A model generated the notes under the pieces. The model did not search any database. It had not been told where the DNA came from and saw only the letters and a list, made by a program, of their open reading frames with translations. Below, in pieces: positions 3,186 through 30,902 of a stretch of DNA of 40,622 bases. How positions within the stretch are numbered: position 1 is the stretch's first letter; each line of letters starts with the position of its first letter. The DNA comes from a virus (lineage: Duplodnaviria > Heunggongvirae > Uroviricota > Caudoviricetes). The stretch is from IMG/VR virus record IMGVR_UViG_2534682002_000024; one strand, written 5' to 3'. The position numbers were made by a program, and so were the translations under genes.

Positions 3186-3431
3186 TTACATCATAGTACC
3201 GTCAGTTCCGGGCTGAACCGGCTCTGGTTGCTCTACGGGTTGAGGCTCATTTTCCGTGCTGTTTTCAGCCGGAGAACGGCCAACCATTCGGGCCAGCACT
3301 TCATCAACATATGCGTCGATTTGTGCCTCAAAATCCTTGCGAACCTGCGCCTTCAGCACGCGGTTCACTTCTTCAGAATAAAGTGCCTGTTTGACAAGCT
3401 CTTCAGTAACCGTGCCTTTAATCTCTGGCAT
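3186..3431 (-). CDS. Hypothetical 81-aa protein with helical N-terminus and acidic proline-rich tail
   Basis: ORF with AAGGAG-like RBS upstream (caaaaggagaatattc-ATG). No recognisable family. Confidence 0.5.
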   Translation of the reverse strand: MPEIKGTVTEELVKQALYSEEVNRVLKAQVRKDFEAQIDAYVDEVLARMVGRSPAENSTENEPQPVEQPEPVQPGTDGTMM

Positions 3432-3466
3432 GAATATTCTCCTTTTGCAGGTATATTGCCCCGTTA

Positions 3467-3649
3467 TCAGAGCGGGGTCGGGTCGTTTGGGGATGACGGT
3501 GCCTGTGCTGTTTTACTGAGTTTTTCAGCTGCCGCATCATCAATTTTACGGCGAATATAATTTCTGATGACCTTATAACCGCCGCTCACCAGATATAACG
3601 CACTGACCACTGCGCAGAAATAAAGCAGCATTGTATGAACGAATGTCAT
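3467..3649 (-). CDS. Hypothetical 60-aa small membrane protein (one N-terminal TM helix, basic C-terminus)
   Basis: Hydrophobic stretch MLLYFCAVVSALYLVSGGY followed by a charged tail. A GC hairpin (CCCCGttatcagaGCGGGG, about 3453-3470) separates it from the next gene. Confidence 0.45.
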   Translation of the reverse strand: MTFVHTMLLYFCAVVSALYLVSGGYKVIRNYIRRKIDDAAAEKLSKTAQAPSSPNDPTPL

Positions 3650-3795
3650 ATAACCTTACCTTTGATATTGACTACATAATTCGTTATCGGGTAAAAACAT
3701 CGAAGCGACTGATAACTACTCCTTCGGTAGTATTTTTATTTTCCTTTATGGGTTAGGTAGCTCCCGCCAGCCGTATCATGACCGGCGGGATTTTT

Positions 3796-5835
3796 TTATT
3801 CTGTTACCGCTTTTTTCACTTCCACCACAATGCTGTCAATCAGCACCGGGTAAGTTGCATTTTTGGTGATATCCGTTACGCGGAGTTTGTCCACCGGGAA
3901 AGTTCCTACTGGTGACTGCGTCAGGGTAAACGCGGCACCATCCTGACCATCAATAACCGGAATAACCTGAAGGCTGTTATTTCCTGCAAAACGGAAGGCC
4001 AGCGTATGCCATTCATTATCAAATGCACCAAAGGTTCCCAGTTTCTGGTTATTTGTTGCCACTTTTGCATTGTGGTACATCACATTCAGGTCTTTTGCGT
4101 CTGTCTGGATGTAGAACGATGCCAGCAGATTATTCCCTGCATCCCCTGTCAGGGTGACACCCTGCGGCAGAGAGGAAACCGGCCAGTAAAGCGCCATGAC
4201 ATACTGGTTTGCCACCAGGTCGCCAGGTACTTTAAAACGACAACTGATTAAACCACCATTTTTCAGCAGTTCAGCACCAGTACCGGCATCATGATCCAGA
4301 TACCAGGATGATTTACCTGTTTCCTTGGTCAGTTTCATTGCCTTACCACCTGTGCCTCCTGCATCACTGATAATTTCAGCTTTACCGCCAGCCGGCTCCC
4401 AGCCCTGGGCTTTCAGATTTCCTTCTGACTCACTGACACGGTAAGACAGCAGTGTTGTGGTTACTGCTTCAGTTTCTGAAGGTGACGGCACTGGTGCTTC
4501 AGTTTCAGAAGATGGAACATCGGCTTTTACTGTGGTTCGCCCTGCATGAGTCAGAACAGCCGTGGCCAGACGGTCAGAAATAATACCCCGGCGCGCCCAG
4601 GCACTGAAATGGCTGGCCCGGTCCGCAGATGTCCAGGTAGCGGCACTGTTACGCCACGTTGAGCCGTAATAACCAATGGATTCAATATCCGGGTCTTCTG
4701 CCGGATTGTTGGTGGGTACATTCACGCCATTTTCATCTGTCATTAATGGAACGAAATGAATGTTTTTATCTGTTTTGTTTTTGTAGCCGCCATAGATTGC
4801 CTGGTATGCTGGTTCATTTTTCTGTTTCCAGAAATACGTGGTATCGCCACAAATCCACGGAACGCCAGCAGCACTGCCACCGGTACACTGTTCCGCCTGT
4901 TCAGCCAGGTCTGCGCGGAATTTTTCCACCATCGCCAGAAACAGCGCAGAATGCTCCGTCGGCTTCGCATCAATATCAAACTCGCCCTGCATCCACACCA
5001 CAGCAAGCAGGCGGTTTTTCGGGTTCTTCGCCAGTGCCGCTTTTGTCCGGCTGATTAAGTCCTTATACAGCGGCTTATCCACACCCCAGCGGGCTGAGTC
5101 CTCTGAAGCACCCGTGCTGTCACTGTACGTGCCGTCAGCACCCGCCGTGAATGCAGAACCACCACGGCAGCAGGGAACCAGCAGAATCCCCGCATCTGCC
5201 GGAATAAACGGCAGCAGTTTTTTGGCAATGTGAAGCCCCTGACCCACGGTGCCATATTGCCCTTTAGCCACATCCGCTTTCGGGTGATTTTTTCCACTCA
5301 TATCCTGCACATCATGCAGACAGTGGTCGGCCAGAATGATGTCGTTATACTGACAGGCTTTACCTCCCGGCGTGACTGTACTGCGACGGGCTAACTGCAT
5401 AATACGCGGTTCGGGGCGGTCATATGTCTCCGGCAGTGGCAGACCTTCACCGTAAGCCATACCGTTTGACTGACCAGCAAGAACCACCACGTAATACCAG
5501 GAAGGGGAGCTGGAAGCAGTTTCATTTCCTGACGGACGGGTATGTGTTTCAGCATTATCCCAGTCTGACGGTTCAGCAGTACCGGCAACATCAGCACTTA
5601 ACGGAATGACCGCACCAATACCCGCTCCGGTAATTTCCACACTCGGATCACCGGATACTGGCCTTACCCACAGGCAATCCCGTGTATTAAAACTGATGAG
5701 ACAGTCAGCAAATGTCATTCCTCCTTTTGTTTCGGCCGGAGGAAAGGGAGCCTCAAGAAATGCCGCTGTACCACCGGAAACTTTAACAGTAAAGTTTCCG
5801 GGCATTGATGATAGTTGAACCCATTTGGACGTCAT
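3796..5835 (-). CDS. 679-aa SGNH/SASA-type carbohydrate esterase with lectin-like beta-sandwich C-terminal domain (cargo gene)
   Basis: VVVLAGQSNGMAYGEG carries the GQSN motif typical of sialate O-acetylesterase-like (SASA/DUF303) SGNH hydrolases. No N-terminal signal peptide. An S/T/P-rich linker precedes a C-terminal region that looks like a concanavalin/laminin-G type domain. It occupies the gin to com-mom interval. Confidence 0.6.
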   Translation of the reverse strand: MTSKWVQLSSMPGNFTVKVSGGTAAFLEAPFPPAETKGGMTFADCLISFNTRDCLWVRPVSGDPSVEITGAGIGAVIPLSADVAGTAEPSDWDNAETHTRPSGNETASSSPSWYYVVVLAGQSNGMAYGEGLPLPETYDRPEPRIMQLARRSTVTPGGKACQYNDIILADHCLHDVQDMSGKNHPKADVAKGQYGTVGQGLHIAKKLLPFIPADAGILLVPCCRGGSAFTAGADGTYSDSTGASEDSARWGVDKPLYKDLISRTKAALAKNPKNRLLAVVWMQGEFDIDAKPTEHSALFLAMVEKFRADLAEQAEQCTGGSAAGVPWICGDTTYFWKQKNEPAYQAIYGGYKNKTDKNIHFVPLMTDENGVNVPTNNPAEDPDIESIGYYGSTWRNSAATWTSADRASHFSAWARRGIISDRLATAVLTHAGRTTVKADVPSSETEAPVPSPSETEAVTTTLLSYRVSESEGNLKAQGWEPAGGKAEIISDAGGTGGKAMKLTKETGKSSWYLDHDAGTGAELLKNGGLISCRFKVPGDLVANQYVMALYWPVSSLPQGVTLTGDAGNNLLASFYIQTDAKDLNVMYHNAKVATNNQKLGTFGAFDNEWHTLAFRFAGNNSLQVIPVIDGQDGAAFTLTQSPVGTFPVDKLRVTDITKNATYPVLIDSIVVEVKKAVTE

Positions 5836-5934
5836 AATAATCAGCCTGTTCCTGAATAAACTGAATTATCATATCCACAGACCGATAAACGCCATTTTGC
5901 GTTAATTCAGTAAAGGCCCAACAAAGAGAGCGTC

Positions 5935-6495
5935 TTATTTTTCCGAAACGCTCGCAGGATAATAACGATAAAGGGTTGAAAGACCGATATCAAAAATAAG
6001 TGCCACCTGTCTTCGACTGACACCCCCGGCCAGTAAACGCCCGACCTGCTCGTATTGTTCCTGCGTGAGACGGCGGGGTCTGCCGCCGGTTCGTCCCCTT
6101 TCACGGGCAGCTGCAAGACCAGCCCGTGTCCGTTCGACAATTAATTCACGCTCCATTTCTGCCAGCGCACCCATTATGTGAAAAAAGAAGCGCCCCATGG
6201 GGGTTGACGTATCAATGTTGTCAGTAAGACTACGAAAATTTATCCCCTGTTGCTGTAATTCATCTGTCAGCGCAACAAGGTGGCGCATACTGCGCCCCAG
6301 CCTGTCCAGTTTCCAGACCATCAGCGTGTCACCGGGTTTTAGTTTCTTCAGTGCCCGCTTCAGTCCCGGCCGCTGTGTCGTTTTACCACTCATTTTGTCT
6401 TCAAAAATCTGCTCACATCCTGCACATTCCAGCGCATTTCTTTGTAAACCGGTGTTCTGGTCATTTGTTGATACGCGTATATAGCCAATCAGCAT
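5935..6495 (-). CDS. gin: Gin/Pin/Hin-family serine DNA invertase
   Basis: MLIGYIRVSTNDQNTGLQRNALECAGCEQIFEDK...WKLDRLGRSMRHL is nearly identical in pattern to Gin/Pin. 186 aa. Transcribed away from the adjacent invertible segment. Confidence 0.9.
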   Translation of the reverse strand: MLIGYIRVSTNDQNTGLQRNALECAGCEQIFEDKMSGKTTQRPGLKRALKKLKPGDTLMVWKLDRLGRSMRHLVALTDELQQQGINFRSLTDNIDTSTPMGRFFFHIMGALAEMERELIVERTRAGLAAARERGRTGGRPRRLTQEQYEQVGRLLAGGVSRRQVALIFDIGLSTLYRYYPASVSEK

Positions 6496-6552
6496 GTATT
6501 TACCTTCCTTAAAAAGAGGTGGAAAAGCCTTTTAAAGTAGATATACGGCATC

Positions 6553-6578
6553 CCTGAAACCTCGGTTTACGGGATACG
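6553..6578. repeat. gix-like crossover site (gin-proximal)
   Basis: GAAACCTCGGTTTACGGGA resembles the Mu gix core (AAACCGAGGTTT) and is an inverted copy of the site at 7976-8001; 16 nt are identical. Confidence 0.7.
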
Positions 6579-6929
6579 GTAAACAGGGCCGCGAATGCCC
6601 TGCCATCAAACGGTACGGCTGTTGCAGCAAGCAGGCTGGCAAATGCCCGCAGAATCAATGGTGTCGCCTTTGACGGCACGCAGGATATAAACATTACGTC
6701 AGGAATGCCGGAATCAACGGCCAATCAGCGTTATGTTACAGGGGTAAGACTGGGAGCGCAGGCATTAAGCGGCGGACTGGAATATAATTACTCCCTGTCA
6801 TCAGGAAATGTGATTACCGGTTTTAAGACTGACGGAGACTGGGAAATGCGTGGTGGTGATGACCGTGTTTATTACAGACAGATACAATATTGTATTAATG
6901 GGCATTGGGTATCCGCTGCAAGTATTTAA
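6558..6929 (+). CDS. Silent alternative tail-fiber C-terminal cassette (S'v-like), no start codon of its own
   Basis: The frame opens directly at the gix site and reads NLGLRDTVNRAANALP...INITSGMPESTANQRY..., closely parallel to S residues NLGLRETVNKAADALP...INITSGMTQSTADGRY..., then diverges at the tip. The track lists only the ATG-started 3' part (6705..6929). Confidence 0.7.
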   Translation, partial: NLGLRDTVNRAANALPSNGTAVAASRLANARRINGVAFDGTQDINITSGMPESTANQRYVTGVRLGAQALSGGLEYNYSLSSGNVITGFKTDGDWEMRGGDDRVYYRQIQYCINGHWVSAASI

Positions 6930-7050
6930 TTAACGGGGGCATAGCACACAGCAGCCAGCATCTGAAATATGCGTTATTTCAGACAAGCATTGCCTGTATA
7001 TGGCGATAGTATTATTCCTGTTTTTATCATTGATTTACATGGTGATGTTT

Positions 7051-7572
7051 ATGCAACTGATTAATGTCAAACGATATTACCCGAAAGACAAACCCTATGG
7101 TGAGGATGTTCAGTATTTCCAGAGTGAGGACGGAAGGGATTTTTATGAATCTATCCCGCTTTTTACAAAGAAATACAAACTCTGTATTTCGCCTGTAACG
7201 GGTATTATCTGCTCTGTTGCTGAAGATGTCTCTGCTTTATATCCGGCAGGTTTTACTGTTGTTGAAGTGGACGAACTGCCGGAAGGTGTGAATATTGACG
7301 GTAACTGGCAGTTTTCTGATGGCCTGATATCAAAGGTGCCGGTAAACTGGAAGACGGTTGCTGAAAAGCGTCGCTCATCGCTGCTCCAGGAAGCCAACGA
7401 AACCGTGGATGACTGGAAAACAGAATTAAAACTGGACATGATTAGCGATGAAAATAAATTACAGCTGACGCGCTGGATGGCGTATATCCGACAGCTTAAA
7501 GAAATGCACTTTAATGATATTGCCAGTGAGGGGCATTACCAGGCGATTCCCTGGCCGGAAAAACCGGAATAA
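7051..7572 (+). CDS. Tail fiber assembly protein (Tfa/U-type chaperone)
   Basis: C-terminus ...TRWMAYIRQLKEMHFNDIASEGHYQAIPWPEKPE matches the conserved Tfa C-terminal pattern. Start placed at ATG 7051 (MQLINVKRYY) rather than the track start at 7000. Confidence 0.75.
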   Translation: MQLINVKRYYPKDKPYGEDVQYFQSEDGRDFYESIPLFTKKYKLCISPVTGIICSVAEDVSALYPAGFTVVEVDELPEGVNIDGNWQFSDGLISKVPVNWKTVAEKRRSSLLQEANETVDDWKTELKLDMISDENKLQLTRWMAYIRQLKEMHFNDIASEGHYQAIPWPEKPE

Positions 7573-7606
7573 TTCAGAGGGTGCATTCAGCACCCTTTTC
7601 TGTGGT

Positions 7607-8518
7607 TTACACTGAACTTACCGTTCTCCAGGTATTATTAATATAAATCTGAACCGGGCGATAATAGACCCCACCGATATTGTCCGCAGACCGGGAGCCG
7701 GTTTCCTGCACGTTAATACCGGAAAGCATACAACCGGAAGGTGCGCTGTAATTCCATGACATTTCATTGCCTCCGGGTGAATGATAGCTCTGTGCTCCAA
7801 GCTGAACATTCTGTACATACCGGCCATCTGCGGTTGACTGCGTCATTCCTGACGTGATGTTGATATCCAGCGTTCCGTCAAAAGGAACACCATTAATATT
7901 TCTTGGGGTGGCGAGTCTGTTTGCTGCCACGGCGGTTCCAGCCGATGGCAGGGCATCAGCAGCCTTATTTACCGTTTCCCGTAAACCGAGGTTATCGATA
8001 AAGGTTCCTTTGTCCTGGATATCCGCGCCATTCTGGTCCCTGCGCAGGTAACGGTTATCACCTTCGCTCCTGCTGTAAACATCCAGATTATTACGGGCGG
8101 TTTCCGCATTCTCCAGGTCGGCAAGGTTCTGATCCTTCGCCAGGGCATTAACGTCAGCGGGACCAAGACTGTTTTTTGTGGCAAGCGTCCCCAGACCAAG
8201 ATAACCACGGGCCAGACGCTGGGCTTCCGCACCGGCATCAGCAATTTCTTTCAGGTTGTTTTTCCGGGAAAAGGCATTCGCAGCGATAATGGCTTTAATG
8301 GACAGCGTAAGCTGGTTTAACTGCGCCTTATCCGGCTGAATACTGGCTTCAGCCAGAATATTCAGCAGTTCGGCCTGGAGAATATTCAGCCAGTCCTGAC
8401 CAATCCAGCTGATACCTTTTTGTCCGTCACCTTCGGTAAACCAGGTGGTGGTATTACTCTGCGCCGGAGCCAGTTCAGGCATATTCGCCACGCCGGAATT
8501 ATTATCAACATGGAACAT
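7607..8518 (-). CDS. Tail fiber protein S (constant N-terminal part plus currently expressed variable C-terminus)
   Basis: Follows baseplate genes and contains the gix site at about residue 175. Start placed at ATG 8518, which overlaps the upstream stop as TAATG. Confidence 0.75.
   Translation of the reverse strand: MFHVDNNSGVANMPELAPAQSNTTTWFTEGDGQKGISWIGQDWLNILQAELLNILAEASIQPDKAQLNQLTLSIKAIIAANAFSRKNNLKEIADAGAEAQRLARGYLGLGTLATKNSLGPADVNALAKDQNLADLENAETARNNLDVYSRSEGDNRYLRRDQNGADIQDKGTFIDNLGLRETVNKAADALPSAGTAVAANRLATPRNINGVPFDGTLDINITSGMTQSTADGRYVQNVQLGAQSYHSPGGNEMSWNYSAPSGCMLSGINVQETGSRSADNIGGVYYRPVQIYINNTWRTVSSV
7976..8001. repeat. gix-like crossover site inside S
   Basis: CCCGTAAACCGAGGTTATCGATAA closely resembles Mu gix (TTCCTGTAAACCGAGGTTTTGGATAA, from memory) and is inverted relative to the site at 6553-6578. 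Confidence 0.7.
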
Positions 8519-9078
8519 TAAATATTCTCCTCTTTGTGACTGTTTGCATACACGTAAATAAACGTCTGCCATGCAGGCTTATAACGGTTCAGAATACATT
8601 CCAGCGCACCACCCTCATAAATACGCAGCGGGGTGAGAATATCATCCAGCACATTCATATTCCGGTAGCCGGTTTCACTGTTTATCGTGACAATACTGAC
8701 CCACTGTGAATCCGGTGATGGCTGAATATCTATTTCATAACCAAACTCTGCCGCAAACCGGATATAAAATTCACGGTTAAGAGAGGGTTTCATCCGGTAT
8801 TTATTCCCTGCATAACGCTGACGTTCCTGAATGGTTGCGCCGGTCATATCACATTCCGGTAACCCCAGATAACGCTCCCAGTCTTCCAGCAGCAGACGGG
8901 ATGAATCAGGAAAACGTTCTGCCAGCATCTGGTTACCGGTCCAGGAAACACGCTCCGTGGAATGACTGAGGCCCAGGCACAAAGCCGCAAGAACGGATGA
9001 CGGCCGCTTATCCCATGCCAGCCCGTCAGGCAGCAACTGCAACAGGGCGCGCTGATGCGGGGTCAGGGTTACAGCCAT
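8518..9078 (-). CDS. Mu gp48-like tail/baseplate protein (P2 gpI analogue)
   Basis: Position between baseplate J and tail fiber; 186 aa; translationally coupled to neighbours. Confidence 0.6.
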   Translation of the reverse strand: MAVTLTPHQRALLQLLPDGLAWDKRPSSVLAALCLGLSHSTERVSWTGNQMLAERFPDSSRLLLEDWERYLGLPECDMTGATIQERQRYAGNKYRMKPSLNREFYIRFAAEFGYEIDIQPSPDSQWVSIVTINSETGYRNMNVLDDILTPLRIYEGGALECILNRYKPAWQTFIYVYANSHKEENI

Positions 9079-10154
9079 GTGATTTCCCCCACGGTCAGCA
9101 ACTCTGTATCTCCGGCCATCACGGACTTCAGCGGACTGCGAACTTCAAAATCCTCCAGTCCTTTCACCCCTGCAACAGCCCGCCAGAATGATGAAGGCAA
9201 TACAAGTCCACCCGGCCGCGATTCGTTATAAAGCAGGTCCGTTAATGCCTGTTTTACGGCAGCCTGATTTTCCGGCGTTTTGGGTACAATCCTGATCTCA
9301 AACGCCACCGGCTTATTGGTCAGCTTAAACACGCTGATTGTCGGCCCAAGTGGCTGACCAACGGGCTGGCCCGTCGCCGGATCATCATGACTGCGGATAT
9401 AATCCGCCACCCGCTTCACATCACCTTCTCCGGGGAAAATGTCAGGGTTATTATCCTGAACAAAAGTCACACCAACACTACCCGCCTCAGGCCATTCAGG
9501 CTTACACCATGCCCGCGTCACGCCCGGTACTTCCCGTGCCCAGCGTTCAAAATCATACTGTGTTCCCCCTGATGGCGGGTTCTGTACCCGGAATACCAGC
9601 CTGGACAGCAACTCCGGCACCGTTTCCACATCCGCACCACCGGTGAGTCCCGTGCCGGTAACCGTGGCTGTCTGGTTGATGCCCGCCTGTGGCGTGATAA
9701 AGGACAGGCGGGTTCCGGTCGGGGTATTTCCGGCGCGCCCCGCACTTTCCGCCTCCACATTAACATTCAGTGTTCCGGCTTTTCCGGTCGCAGAGCCGGT
9801 GATGCGGTACACAACACCATCGCTTCGCTGAAGGAGTACGCCTTCCGTGATCCCTGCATCCGTGGTCAGCATCAGTTGTACCGGTCCGTCAGCGCGGGAA
9901 GCCGGTTTACGGATGACACCCCAGAATGCGCAGTGTTTCAGGAGTTCGGCTTCATCAGCTTCTGTCGGAATTATCTGCCGGGAGATCCAGGCCAGATGTT
10001 CATGCTCCTGTGCTGACAGACCCGCCAGTGCATACGCAATGGCATTCAGGGTGGTTTCATTCACGCCCGGCTGCGAACCGGGCAGGCGCTGGCTGATATC
10101 CTGTTGTGTCTGTGTGATCAGTTGCGCCAGTGGTAAGGGCTGATAAGGCATCAT
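9069..10154 (-). CDS. Baseplate J-like protein (Mu gp47)
   Basis: 361-aa ORF in the conserved position after the gp46-like gene; size typical of baseplate J family. Confidence 0.7.
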   Translation of the reverse strand: MMPYQPLPLAQLITQTQQDISQRLPGSQPGVNETTLNAIAYALAGLSAQEHEHLAWISRQIIPTEADEAELLKHCAFWGVIRKPASRADGPVQLMLTTDAGITEGVLLQRSDGVVYRITGSATGKAGTLNVNVEAESAGRAGNTPTGTRLSFITPQAGINQTATVTGTGLTGGADVETVPELLSRLVFRVQNPPSGGTQYDFERWAREVPGVTRAWCKPEWPEAGSVGVTFVQDNNPDIFPGEGDVKRVADYIRSHDDPATGQPVGQPLGPTISVFKLTNKPVAFEIRIVPKTPENQAAVKQALTDLLYNESRPGGLVLPSSFWRAVAGVKGLEDFEVRSPLKSVMAGDTELLTVGEITWL

Positions 10155-18998: not shown

Positions 18999-19414
18999 AT
19001 GAAGCCCTTCTGGTTGCGCCCGAATACCGCTGCATCAGACTGAACCTGTGGTAAATCCCCGGATTCAGGGGCCGCTCCGTTCGTATCCACACCTACCGGC
19101 ACATTGCCGTTCATGACATCTTTCAGCCAGGCCAGCGCCTCACGGTAACGGTCACGCGCCTGATCTGAGGCTCGCTGATCGCACAGGTAATAAAAGGCAA
19201 TCGCGCAACAGTGCTGAACAAGAACGGCCGGAATAACCTCCAGCGGCAGCGTGTAACGGGCGGACAGATAGCTGTCGATAAGGGCTGACGCATCTGTCAG
19301 CGCCCGGTTCAGCTTGCGCGTATCCGGCTCATCCGAACGGGGCACAGCCAGTAACGGCCTGAGCAAATCCTCGCGGTAACGCGCCCGCATATCGGTTTCA
19401 GTGGCGTAATTCAT
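18995..19414 (-). CDS. Mu gp36-like head-tail connector protein
   Basis: 139 aa, in the conserved block between capsid and sheath. Confidence 0.5.
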   Translation of the reverse strand: MNYATETDMRARYREDLLRPLLAVPRSDEPDTRKLNRALTDASALIDSYLSARYTLPLEVIPAVLVQHCCAIAFYYLCDQRASDQARDRYREALAWLKDVMNGNVPVGVDTNGAAPESGDLPQVQSDAAVFGRNQKGFI

Positions 19415-19809
19415 GCACGGGCCTGTTTCGCTTTGTTACCGGTCTTTTTCCAGGGAGCATCCTGTCCGGCTTCGGCTTCGGCTTCGGCTTCGGCTTCGGC
19501 TTCGGCTTCGGCTTCGGCTTCGGCTTCGGCTAAATCTGTACCGGCCACTGCATGAACCACACCCGCCACGCTCCCCGCATCATCAGCAGACGTCTGTAGT
19601 ATTCGCACAGTGAGGCATGGCTCCGCCTCCAGTCGGGCAAGCTGCTCCGGGGTGACCTCAACCTGCTGACGTCCACGCGTGAACAGAAACCCCGCACGAC
19701 GAAACGCCGAACGACTGCAACGCACTTCTGCCAGCACCGTGACAGAATTGTCACCACTGACCTGAAGACCTGAATCATCTGTTGCTGCCACAGTGTGATG
19801 TTCATTCAT
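19411..19809 (-). CDS. Mu J/gp35-like head-tail protein carrying an (EA)10 dipeptide repeat
   Basis: 132-aa ORF following the major capsid gene; contains AEAEAEAEAEAEAEAEAEAEA encoded by a hexanucleotide tandem repeat. Confidence 0.6.
   Translation of the reverse strand: MNEHHTVAATDDSGLQVSGDNSVTVLAEVRCSRSAFRRAGFLFTRGRQQVEVTPEQLARLEAEPCLTVRILQTSADDAGSVAGVVHAVAGTDLAEAEAEAEAEAEAEAEAEAEAGQDAPWKKTGNKAKQARA
19468..19530. repeat. (GGCTTC)10 perfect tandem hexanucleotide repeat inside a coding region
   Basis: Ten uninterrupted GGCTTC units plus a partial unit, read directly from the sequence; in-frame, encoding (Glu-Ala)n on the minus strand. Confidence 0.95.
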
Positions 19810-29897: not shown

Positions 29898-30323
29898 TCA
29901 GAAAAGTGGCGGTTGCGTTCTTGCCAGATGCAGACGGCGCTGTTCACGTATGACGGTATAAATCTGGGTTTCTGACATCCGGTAATGGCGGCGAAGGGAT
30001 TCAATTTTCTCGCCCCGGTCCCAGCGCGAAAATATCTCATTGTTTCGCAGCTCGGCAAAGAGAGATTCCCCGACCGGCAGGTAATAACCCCGTCCGCCCA
30101 TATAGGCTGCCTGAGCCGCAGCCACCTTGCGTGCCAGTTTACCGGCCAGTACCGGCTCAATCCCCTGACGCTGAAGTTCTGCGCCGGTGACTTCAACCAG
30201 TTCTGACAGGGTCCGCGGCCAGTTCTTTTTGAGAACATCATCAGGGATGTCATCAAGGCGGTCGATAAGGGCGTGCAGTTGCTCACTGTCACCACCAAAC
30301 ATGCTCATCTGAGTTTCTGCCAT
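29898..30323 (-). CDS. Mor/C-family transcriptional activator
   Basis: 141 aa; the C-terminal part (GRGYYLP ... IYTVIREQRRLHLARTQPPLF) parallels Mu Mor as I recall it. Whether it is the Mor or the C equivalent is not resolved. Confidence 0.7.
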   Translation of the reverse strand: MAETQMSMFGGDSEQLHALIDRLDDIPDDVLKKNWPRTLSELVEVTGAELQRQGIEPVLAGKLARKVAAAQAAYMGGRGYYLPVGESLFAELRNNEIFSRWDRGEKIESLRRHYRMSETQIYTVIREQRRLHLARTQPPLF

Positions 30324-30354
30324 ATCAGCCTCCGGTTCTCACGTTCCCGGTAAG

Positions 30355-30386
30355 TTTAAAATAAAAATCCCGCGTTGTGGCGGGAT
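30355..30386 (-). terminator. Intrinsic terminator downstream of gemA-like gene
   Basis: Hairpin ATCCCGC-gttgtg-GCGGGAT (30367-30386) followed on the minus strand by a T-rich run (TTTTTATTTTAAA). Confidence 0.5.
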
Positions 30387-30392
30387 TTGGGG

Positions 30393-30902
30393 TTAACGGG
30401 GAAGTGATTTTTCATACTGCCTGCAAACGGCGTCATACCCCATCAGCGTGCGTTCGGGCATTCCCATCGCGGCCAGCATTTTGCGGCGGTGCCATCGCTT
30501 GAGACGCTCCAGCACATCTGAGGCCAGGGCGGGGTGTTGCTCCAGCCACTGCCAGTTTGCCACACCTTCGCCGCCGTTCTGCGCGGCCGTCTGCGATTTC
30601 ACCCAGCGGTTAAGGGCGGTTTCCGCACCATCGGTGATAAAGCCCTGCCGGAGCATCACCTTCCAGATGGCGCGAATTTTGGCGGTCACCGTACCCGGTT
30701 TTAAGGCCCGGTTAACCGGGTTCTGACGCACTTTAAAACCGCGTTTTTTGAAAACATCCAGCACGCGGGATAACTCATCCGGTGACATATCCCGGCAGCT
30801 GGTTTTGCCGGTGGCTGCCAGCAGCGCGGATGTATAAGTCTCATCATCCAGGGCAAGCTCGCGCTTTGCCACATGAATGGCGGATATCAGTTTTCCTCTC
30901 AT
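30393..30902 (-). CDS. GemA-like protein (Mu gp16 family)
   Basis: 169 aa; sits immediately upstream of the Mor/C-type gene as gemA does in Mu. Confidence 0.65.
   Translation of the reverse strand: MRGKLISAIHVAKRELALDDETYTSALLAATGKTSCRDMSPDELSRVLDVFKKRGFKVRQNPVNRALKPGTVTAKIRAIWKVMLRQGFITDGAETALNRWVKSQTAAQNGGEGVANWQWLEQHPALASDVLERLKRWHRRKMLAAMGMPERTLMGYDAVCRQYEKSLPR

Follow-up and report, generated by a model that had tools for sequence, protein, structure and literature searches.

The C segment of P1 with its invertase Cin, the P segment of e14 with Pin and the Min system of p15B work by a common principle, in which a serine invertase and inverted 26-bp sites swap the C-terminus of a tail fiber, and in these systems each alternative cassette is described as coming with its own tail-fiber assembly chaperone (Tfa) gene. 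The use of Fis and a recombinational enhancer is established for the Gin family of invertases. Fiber chaperones are usually regarded as one-tip partners, and the textbook switches (Mu, P1 and e14) carry one chaperone per tip. In this study we analyzed a related tail-fiber segment in IMG/VR record IMGVR_UViG_2534682002_000024, a stretch of 40,622 nucleotides (hereafter the window) that is an Sp18-type Mu-like prophage of Shiga-toxin-producing Escherichia coli. This natural and widespread switch runs with a single chaperone gene, tfa, which lies head-on to one of its two presumed clients.

Comparison with the Mu G segment showed clear likeness in layout and sequence. Both loci share the order gp47, gp48, fiber, invertible segment, gin, com and mom, the crossover falls at the same point of the fiber (..NLGL(Q/R)ETVN..), the fiber is homologous to Mu S in its N-terminus and in its distal tip, and Tfa is homologous to Mu U. 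In contrast, the Mu segment spans ∼3.06 kb and this one 1.43 kb, and the variable parts are ∼320–335 aa in Mu and 123–128 aa here. As the initial annotation of this DNA stated, the Mu segment carries two chaperones (U and U′) and this one only a single Tfa-type gene. In Mu the pairs are S-U and S′-U′, whereas here one tip is convergent with the only chaperone gene. The gap between tip and tfa is 2 nt in Mu and 121 nt in the window, and unlike Mu the window has a NanS-p-like esterase module between gin and com/mom. The locus is a member of the Gin/gix switch family by its recombinase, its sites, its inversion in nature and its in-frame exchange of tips. It is not a strict Mu-type G segment, because we looked for both a chaperone per tip and a tight coupling of tip and chaperone and found neither.

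We lean, with slightly better than even confidence, towards reading the locus as a functional Gin/gix switch of host range, reduced to 1.43 kb, in which both tips share one generalist Tfa whose gene is transcribed independently. Tfa would thus act on both tips, and tfa would have its own promoter. The initial annotation drew no consequence from the asymmetry; the comparison across the family favors a shared Tfa over a fiber that lacks a chaperone. If one chaperone does serve both tips, its fiber-binding domain would recognize a conserved tip scaffold and not the variable receptor-binding surface, and a 1.4-kb cassette would suffice for a two-state host-range switch, which would be useful for phage and tailocin engineering. 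The arrangement also raises the question of how a Mu-like phage expresses a late structural helper gene that runs counter to its late operon.

A Gin-type invertase and two inverted gix sites

The gene adjoining the segment (5935–6495, minus strand) encodes a gin-type small serine recombinase of 186 aa, with an N-terminal catalytic domain (Pfam Resolvase, E 1.4e-51; motif RVSTNDQ near the N-terminus) and a C-terminal helix-turn-helix (HTH_7, E 1.7e-14). It is 75% identical to Mu Gin by tblastn, in agreement with the Gin-type inversion system initially annotated. The left crossover site, gixL, lies at 6550–6575 and reads ATCCCTGAAACC TC GGTTTACGGGAT, with its core TC at 6562–6563 and 19 of 26 positions matching Mu gix. 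The right site, gixR, lies at 7976–8001 and reads TTCCCGTAAACC GA GGTTATCGATAA, with its core GA at 7988–7989; it matches Mu gix at 23 of 26 positions and sits inside the fiber frame (..FIDNLGLRETV..). The two are mutually inverted, both have the Din-family form of a 26-bp site with 12-bp half-sites and a 2-bp core, and the core-to-core distance is 1,428 bp. The initial annotation had the bracketed length (about 1.4 kb) and the right site exactly, and its left site, given as 6553–6578, was 3 nt off. A repeat search gave the homology flanking the sites as a single 179-nt inverted repeat, 75% complementary, at 6558–6736 and 7815–7993.

Both orientations occur in nature

The switch flips in nature, and both of the orientations whose existence the initial annotation proposed to check are present in public genomes. 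The window orientation was found in 183 of 5,426 complete E. coli genomes (at least 80% coverage of a 2.7-kb query) and the flipped orientation, searched with an in silico flipped construct under the same criterion, in 27, a ratio that should not be over-read since many of these genomes are clonal and only the predominant state of a culture is visible in an assembly. Two flipped genomes, H43 and H44, are 100.0% identical to the in silico flip over all 2,701 nt, which confirms the gix sites and the position of the crossover. Additionally, the flipped genomes have a full-length ‘phage tail protein’ annotated at the position of the fiber. One published Mu-type inversion confirmed by long reads (PMC9881135; CP066032) was considered as well and turned out to be a classical two-chaperone G segment.

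One fiber N-terminus joined in frame to either of two related tips

On the minus strand the fiber open reading frame (ORF) runs from 8521 to 7607 through gixR and encodes 303 aa beginning with MFHVDNN. Its match to Mu S (5yvq_A) is E 1e-49 overall. The constant N-terminus, Sc (7994–8521, minus strand, ∼175 aa), is homologous to Mu S residues 1–191 (fiber residues 2–199, E 5e-43). The C-terminus expressed in the window orientation, tipA (7607–7993, minus strand), comprises 128 aa and the stop codon; its last 74 aa, fiber residues 230–303, match the Mu S tip at 435–503 (E 1.6e-5), and ∼240 aa from the center of Mu S are missing. The silent alternative, tipB (6558–6929, plus strand), encodes a Mu-S-like C-terminus of 123 aa that lacks a start codon of its own and whose distal part matches the Mu S tip at 57%. 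Its frame opens after the TGA at 6555–6557, with the first codon (N) at 6558, 4 nt before the core, and ends at the stop codon 6927–6929. Inverting the segment in silico at the cores yields an unbroken fiber ORF of ∼300 aa, so that the constant N-terminus is fused in frame to either tip. Thus, an expressed S C-terminus on the minus strand and a silent one on the plus strand that opens at gix were both rightly called from the sequence.

The same annotation described tips that are similar for about 55 residues and then diverge. Indeed, identity between tipA and tipB is 76% in the first 58 residues and falls to 37% in the remainder. The divergence does not amount to unrelatedness, as their homology extends through to the C-terminal end (54% over 129 aa, E 2e-40).

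A single Tfa gene in the prophage

The chaperone gene tfa (7051–7572, plus strand) encodes 173 aa and matches Pfam Caudo_TAP (PF02413) at 67 bits against a cut-off of 22.1; residues 3–147 align with Mu U (5yvq_B) at E 1e-15. It has the same orientation as the silent tipB and is convergent with the expressed fiber gene. We built a profile from 25 family members together with Mu U and U′ (27 sequences) and searched it against the six-frame ORFs of at least 30 aa in the window. The sole match was tfa itself (E 2e-87, the next at E 0.94), and no second Tfa was found in the 40.6-kb window by this search. These results uphold the earlier description of a lone Tfa-type gene co-oriented with the silent cassette and of a fiber that has no co-transcribed chaperone in the window orientation, and a second chaperone elsewhere in the prophage, which that description had named as a finding that would overturn it, did not appear. 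A hidden chaperone encoded antisense to tfa was also considered and rejected, because the open frames there are not conserved between Tfa types.

Most invariant columns of the Tfa family fall in its N-terminal ∼97 residues. For the Mu-type protein, a passage in PMC9608196 that cites North et al. (2019) describes the N-terminal half as the fiber-binding domain. Mu U and U′ are themselves 71% identical there. Such a concentration of invariant columns would fit recognition of a common tip scaffold.

The single-chaperone layout recurs across lineages with freely combined parts

Scanning IMG/VR with the Tfa alignment gave 80 loci, which were annotated by tblastn. Two scans of species-representative genomes returned none and then one non-invertible locus, and the survey therefore consists of IMG/VR contigs and complete E. 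coli genomes. The layout gin, next tipB and tfa in tandem on one strand, then the convergent tipA followed by Sc, is present in ∼25 IMG/VR loci, in both orientations and with Tfa 60–100% identical. The parts fall into two Tfa types (T1 and T2, mutually 60–64% identical), two types of convergent tip (A-I and A-II) and three types of co-oriented tip (B-I, which is Mu-S-like, B-II and B-III). T1 occurs with A-I and either B-I or B-II, and T2 with A-I or A-II and either B-I, B-III or no tipB. This free combination suggests that the chaperone is not tied to one tip. In locus L020 (IMGVR_UViG_2671180275_000009), gin and the esterase gene are 99–100% identical to the window and tfa is only 64% identical.

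Non-invertible tail modules of Mu-like and other myoviruses (for example Salmonella locus L087) carry the same Tfa family at 53–58% identity and small tips with the same C-terminal motif. These tandem fiber-tfa modules differ from the switch in lacking an invertase and a second tip and in having tfa 5–17 nt behind the fiber gene. In ∼45 such relatives a strong ribosome-binding site stands between the Tfa homologue and the tip that immediately precedes it, and this tip is mostly A-I-like (..SADNIGGVYYKxxQIYINGxWRxVSG), which points to the window tipA being a normal client of the Tfa family.

Three relatives (L069, L078 and L080) combine the same Tfa family with the classical two-tfa arrangement. 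Because such relatives exist, loss of a chaperone is the likely origin of the single-tfa form, which probably derives from a two-tfa arrangement by loss of one copy. A stronger version of this idea is that a Mu-type segment lost one chaperone by deletion in a degenerating prophage and that the asymmetry has no functional meaning. The two-tfa relatives are compatible with such decay, as is the damage seen in individual loci: tipB is frameshifted in L025 and tipA truncated after 38 residues in L030, both with tfa intact, and L084 has frameshifted neighbors. However, the layout is stable, in both orientations, across lineages whose tfa synonymous divergence is saturated, all three coding parts are under purifying selection, and Sp18 is predicted to be intact with its DNA packaged (PMC2669165). 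We regard simple decay as very improbable.

Selection on the tips also bears on the possibility that the window orientation is an OFF state, in which the tipA fiber stays unassembled for want of a chaperone and the switch toggles infectivity and not host range. Such a state would agree with the lack of a co-transcribed chaperone in this orientation and with its being the commoner one in assemblies (183 versus 27), a state that selection would leave in place in a dormant prophage. Against it, the distal 68 codons of type A-I tipA are under strong purifying selection (dN/dS 0.05–0.16 across lineages, with dS from 0.6 to above 1.5), and tipA has diversified into two types. An OFF state therefore has only a slight probability in our view.

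A natural lineage locked in the window-type state

Seven IMG/VR loci (L012–16, L018 and L023) have lost gin, gixL and most of tipB, and so have at least seven complete E. coli genomes. The junction is identical throughout and joins what is left of the gin 3′-end to the final codons of a tip. Because all of these parts were lost at one shared junction, the locus is locked with tfa convergent to the fiber gene, and it retains the spacer, an intact tfa and the convergent Sc-tipA fiber. The locked form occurs in E. coli from humans and mice. All neighboring tail genes are annotated as intact in the mouse strain M3, and some tail genes are frameshifted in JE86-ST05 (the neighbors of L084). Among locked copies tfa shows dN/dS of 0.10–0.23 with dS up to 0.43. 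A selected tfa whose only possible client is the convergent fiber is the best available argument, drawn from comparative data, that Tfa may serve tipA and may be expressed independently. This gin-less lineage is a ready-made natural control, and the persistence of a lineage fixed in the window-type state with intact tail genes speaks against an OFF state as well.

The locked form is equally pertinent to the view that Tfa belongs to the tipB cassette only, and that tipA folds without a dedicated chaperone or with an outside helper, for instance a Tfa encoded by a resident lambdoid prophage. One orientation would in that case yield a fiber capped by Tfa and the other a fiber without it. This view draws on the position of tfa, which adjoins tipB, is co-oriented with it and can be co-transcribed only with it, on the lack of a promoter found for independent expression, and on the observation that each tipB type brings its own spacer and first tfa codons, which suggests that the beginning of tfa moves along with tipB. 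Against it, the locked lineage keeps tfa intact and under selection (dN/dS 0.10–0.23) without tipB, the A-I-like tips of non-invertible phages always have a family Tfa 5–17 nt behind them, and one Tfa type occurs with different tipB types. A lambdoid helper is further disfavored by the occurrence of the locked form in mouse strains, whose lambdoid prophage load probably differs from that of O157 strains. On balance a chaperone restricted to tipB appears unlikely.

Another source of tfa transcripts in the window orientation could be a promoter outside the segment, for example on the gin/gixL side, and not in the spacer between tipB and tfa. The spacer has no consensus promoter, and a promoter near gin directed outward would supply transcripts of tipB and tfa in precisely the state in which the late operon is unable to. 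However, in the locked lineage, where the gin 5′ region and gixL are gone, only the spacer and ∼190 nt precede tfa, which is still intact; in addition, a scan found no promoter-like site on the plus strand at 6496–6550. To an outside promoter we attach little probability. Taken together, the locked lineage and the selection data argue, as far as sequence comparison can, against all four of these explanations, namely decay, an OFF state, a tipB-only chaperone and an outside promoter.

A long spacer upstream of tfa and points that weigh against independent transcription

The 121-nt spacer from the tipB stop to the tfa start (6930–7050, plus strand) is a candidate location for a tfa promoter. Among 22 invertible loci with one tfa the gap between tip and tfa is 51, 79 or 120–121 nt, apart from the locus with the frameshifted tipB, which reads 110 nt. 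The gap is 5–17 nt in all the others, namely 47 non-invertible loci and four two-tfa loci including Mu. Thus a long spacer (51–121 nt) before tfa is found only in single-chaperone loci. Its sequence comes in three mutually unrelated versions, one for each tipB type, which are mostly AT-rich (57–78% A+T). The last ∼60 nt of the window-type spacer are nearly unchanged in loci whose tfa synonymous sites are saturated. By eye, each spacer has a 5/6 match to a −10 hexamer 33–38 nt before the ATG with a poor −35; a −10-like hexamer of this kind would fit an activator-dependent promoter, and we gave it no weight as evidence. The window spacer also holds a perfect 9-bp inverted repeat at 6961–6983. 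This repeat was considered as an activator site and dropped, being unique in the window.

Several observations weigh against a shared chaperone with its own promoter. First, a consensus scan of the plus strand found no sigma-70 match of at least 9/12 in any of the three spacer types; the scan also covered the locked junction, and one 9/12 match 137 nt upstream of tfa in L085 is at chance level. Similarly, the Mu C-box TTAT-N6-ATAA, as in Mu Pmom, has no exact match in the whole window, and the matches with one mismatch are uninformative. A comparison of the spacer with the presumed late promoter regions gave no convincing common motif. Shared words were looked at in this connection and set aside: two 9/10 matches upstream of the protease/scaffold gene have a different spacing and are probably due to chance. 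Because no promoter was identified, independent transcription of tfa is something that we infer. Second, a sliding comparison shows the window and L020 to be mosaic, 97–100% identical from gin to ∼6940, and conservation of the proximal spacer could therefore reflect a recombination block and not constraint. Spacer conservation was accordingly rejected as proof of constraint, since recombination explains the L020 mosaic equally well. Third, within the locked lineage the tfa alleles are more divergent than the deletion junction, which indicates that recombination with invertible relatives has contributed and that some of the purifying-selection signal may be imported. Lastly, U and U′ are this similar in their N-terminal halves (71% identity) and yet Mu retains both, so that sharing is not automatic.

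Published transcription-start maps covering Sp18 were not found in the literature, and Rfam gave no match in 5800–8700.

A stable hairpin separates the convergent genes

The 34-nt gap between the convergent tfa and fiber genes contains a stem-loop at 7576–7598 that has a T-run on the plus strand only and is terminator-like for tfa. The RNA of the plus strand is predicted to fold at −17.0 kcal/mol (z −3.1) and that of the minus strand at −14.7 kcal/mol (z −3.5). The T-run lies on the tfa strand in T1 loci, whereas T2 loci have a different hairpin with the T-run on the fiber strand (L022, 6089–6108; L085, 5049–5068). In both types of locus the convergent genes are separated by a stable hairpin.

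These features can be combined in a mechanism that accords with a single generalist chaperone. By analogy to Mu, Gin would recombine the inverted gix sites, presumably with Fis and an enhancer expected in the 5′ part of the invertase gene, and the late tail operon on the minus strand would read the constant N-terminus joined to either tipA or tipB. The Tfa, which we propose to be a generalist for this family of small tips that all end in a Y(R/K)-x-x-Q ... W motif, would fold whichever tip is expressed and would probably stay bound to it. In the flipped state tfa would be co-transcribed behind Sc-tipB. In the window state it must be transcribed alone because it is convergent with the fiber gene, most likely from the unusually long spacer, and the stem-loop in the gap between tfa and tipA would keep the two convergent transcripts apart.

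The same hairpin and convergent pair admit a different use. The asymmetry itself may be functional, with the orientation setting both the tip and the amount of Tfa: tipB would receive co-translated Tfa at the level of the operon, and tipA little or none. In Mu the virion retains Tfa, which takes part in recognizing the host surface (PMC9608196). The switch here would accordingly alternate between an adsorption device capped by Tfa and one that is largely uncapped, and the convergent pair and the stem-loop would set the ratio. We hold this use of the asymmetry to be rather doubtful.

The prophage and its neighboring genes

Over positions 5900–8600 the window is 99–100% identical to the chromosomes of several O157:H7 strains, and the window is at least 99% identical to Mu-like prophages in O157:H7 chromosomes. 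Sp18 of O157:H7 Sakai is among the closest known systems. In the searchable Sp18 literature the invertible region appears only in passing, and the single chaperone, its convergent position, the locked derivatives and the mix of cassettes are unmentioned. Sp18 is predicted to be intact, and its DNA is spontaneously packaged into particles (PMC2669165). Because the element is common in Shiga-toxin-producing E. coli and its DNA is packaged, its host range bears on gene flow in a pathogen.

Directly upstream of the fiber gene, at the end of the late tail operon, lies a Mu gp48-type baseplate wedge gene (8518–9078, minus strand; Pfam Phage_Mu_Gp48, E 2e-22), preceded by a Mu-type tail gene with the Pfam domain Baseplate_J (9069–10154, minus strand). 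Further upstream the window encodes a Mor-family activator, GemA and a lysozyme, and com and mom are at the far end. The activator gene (29898–30323) is the only Mor/C-family gene between gemA and the lysozyme gene among the ORFs scanned (29898–30902), whereas Mu has both mor and C. With this single Mor/C gene and no Mu C-box in the window, late-gene control may differ from that of Mu.

Between gin and com/mom, where Mu has nothing, three genes occupy 3186–5835 on the minus strand. They encode a 679-aa SASA sialate-O-acetylesterase with a C-terminal DUF6645, a DUF1378 protein and a DUF826 protein, a trio that resembles the NanS-p esterase module which Stx phages carry beside their lysis genes. 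With the segment in the window orientation, late transcription reading through beyond the fiber gene would enter gin and then this module.

Two records of Stx1a/Stx2c-converting phages (LC727881.1 and LC727895.1; H1 and H2) contain an inserted Mu-like region with the same switch in a B-II tip variant at 93% identity, which indicates that the Mu-like element has transposed into Stx prophages. Finally, in the head/neck gene block, a minus-strand ORF (19411–19809) carries ∼12 tandem copies of CGGCTT at 19455–19532, which encode (Ala-Glu)12 near the C-terminus of a 132-aa protein.

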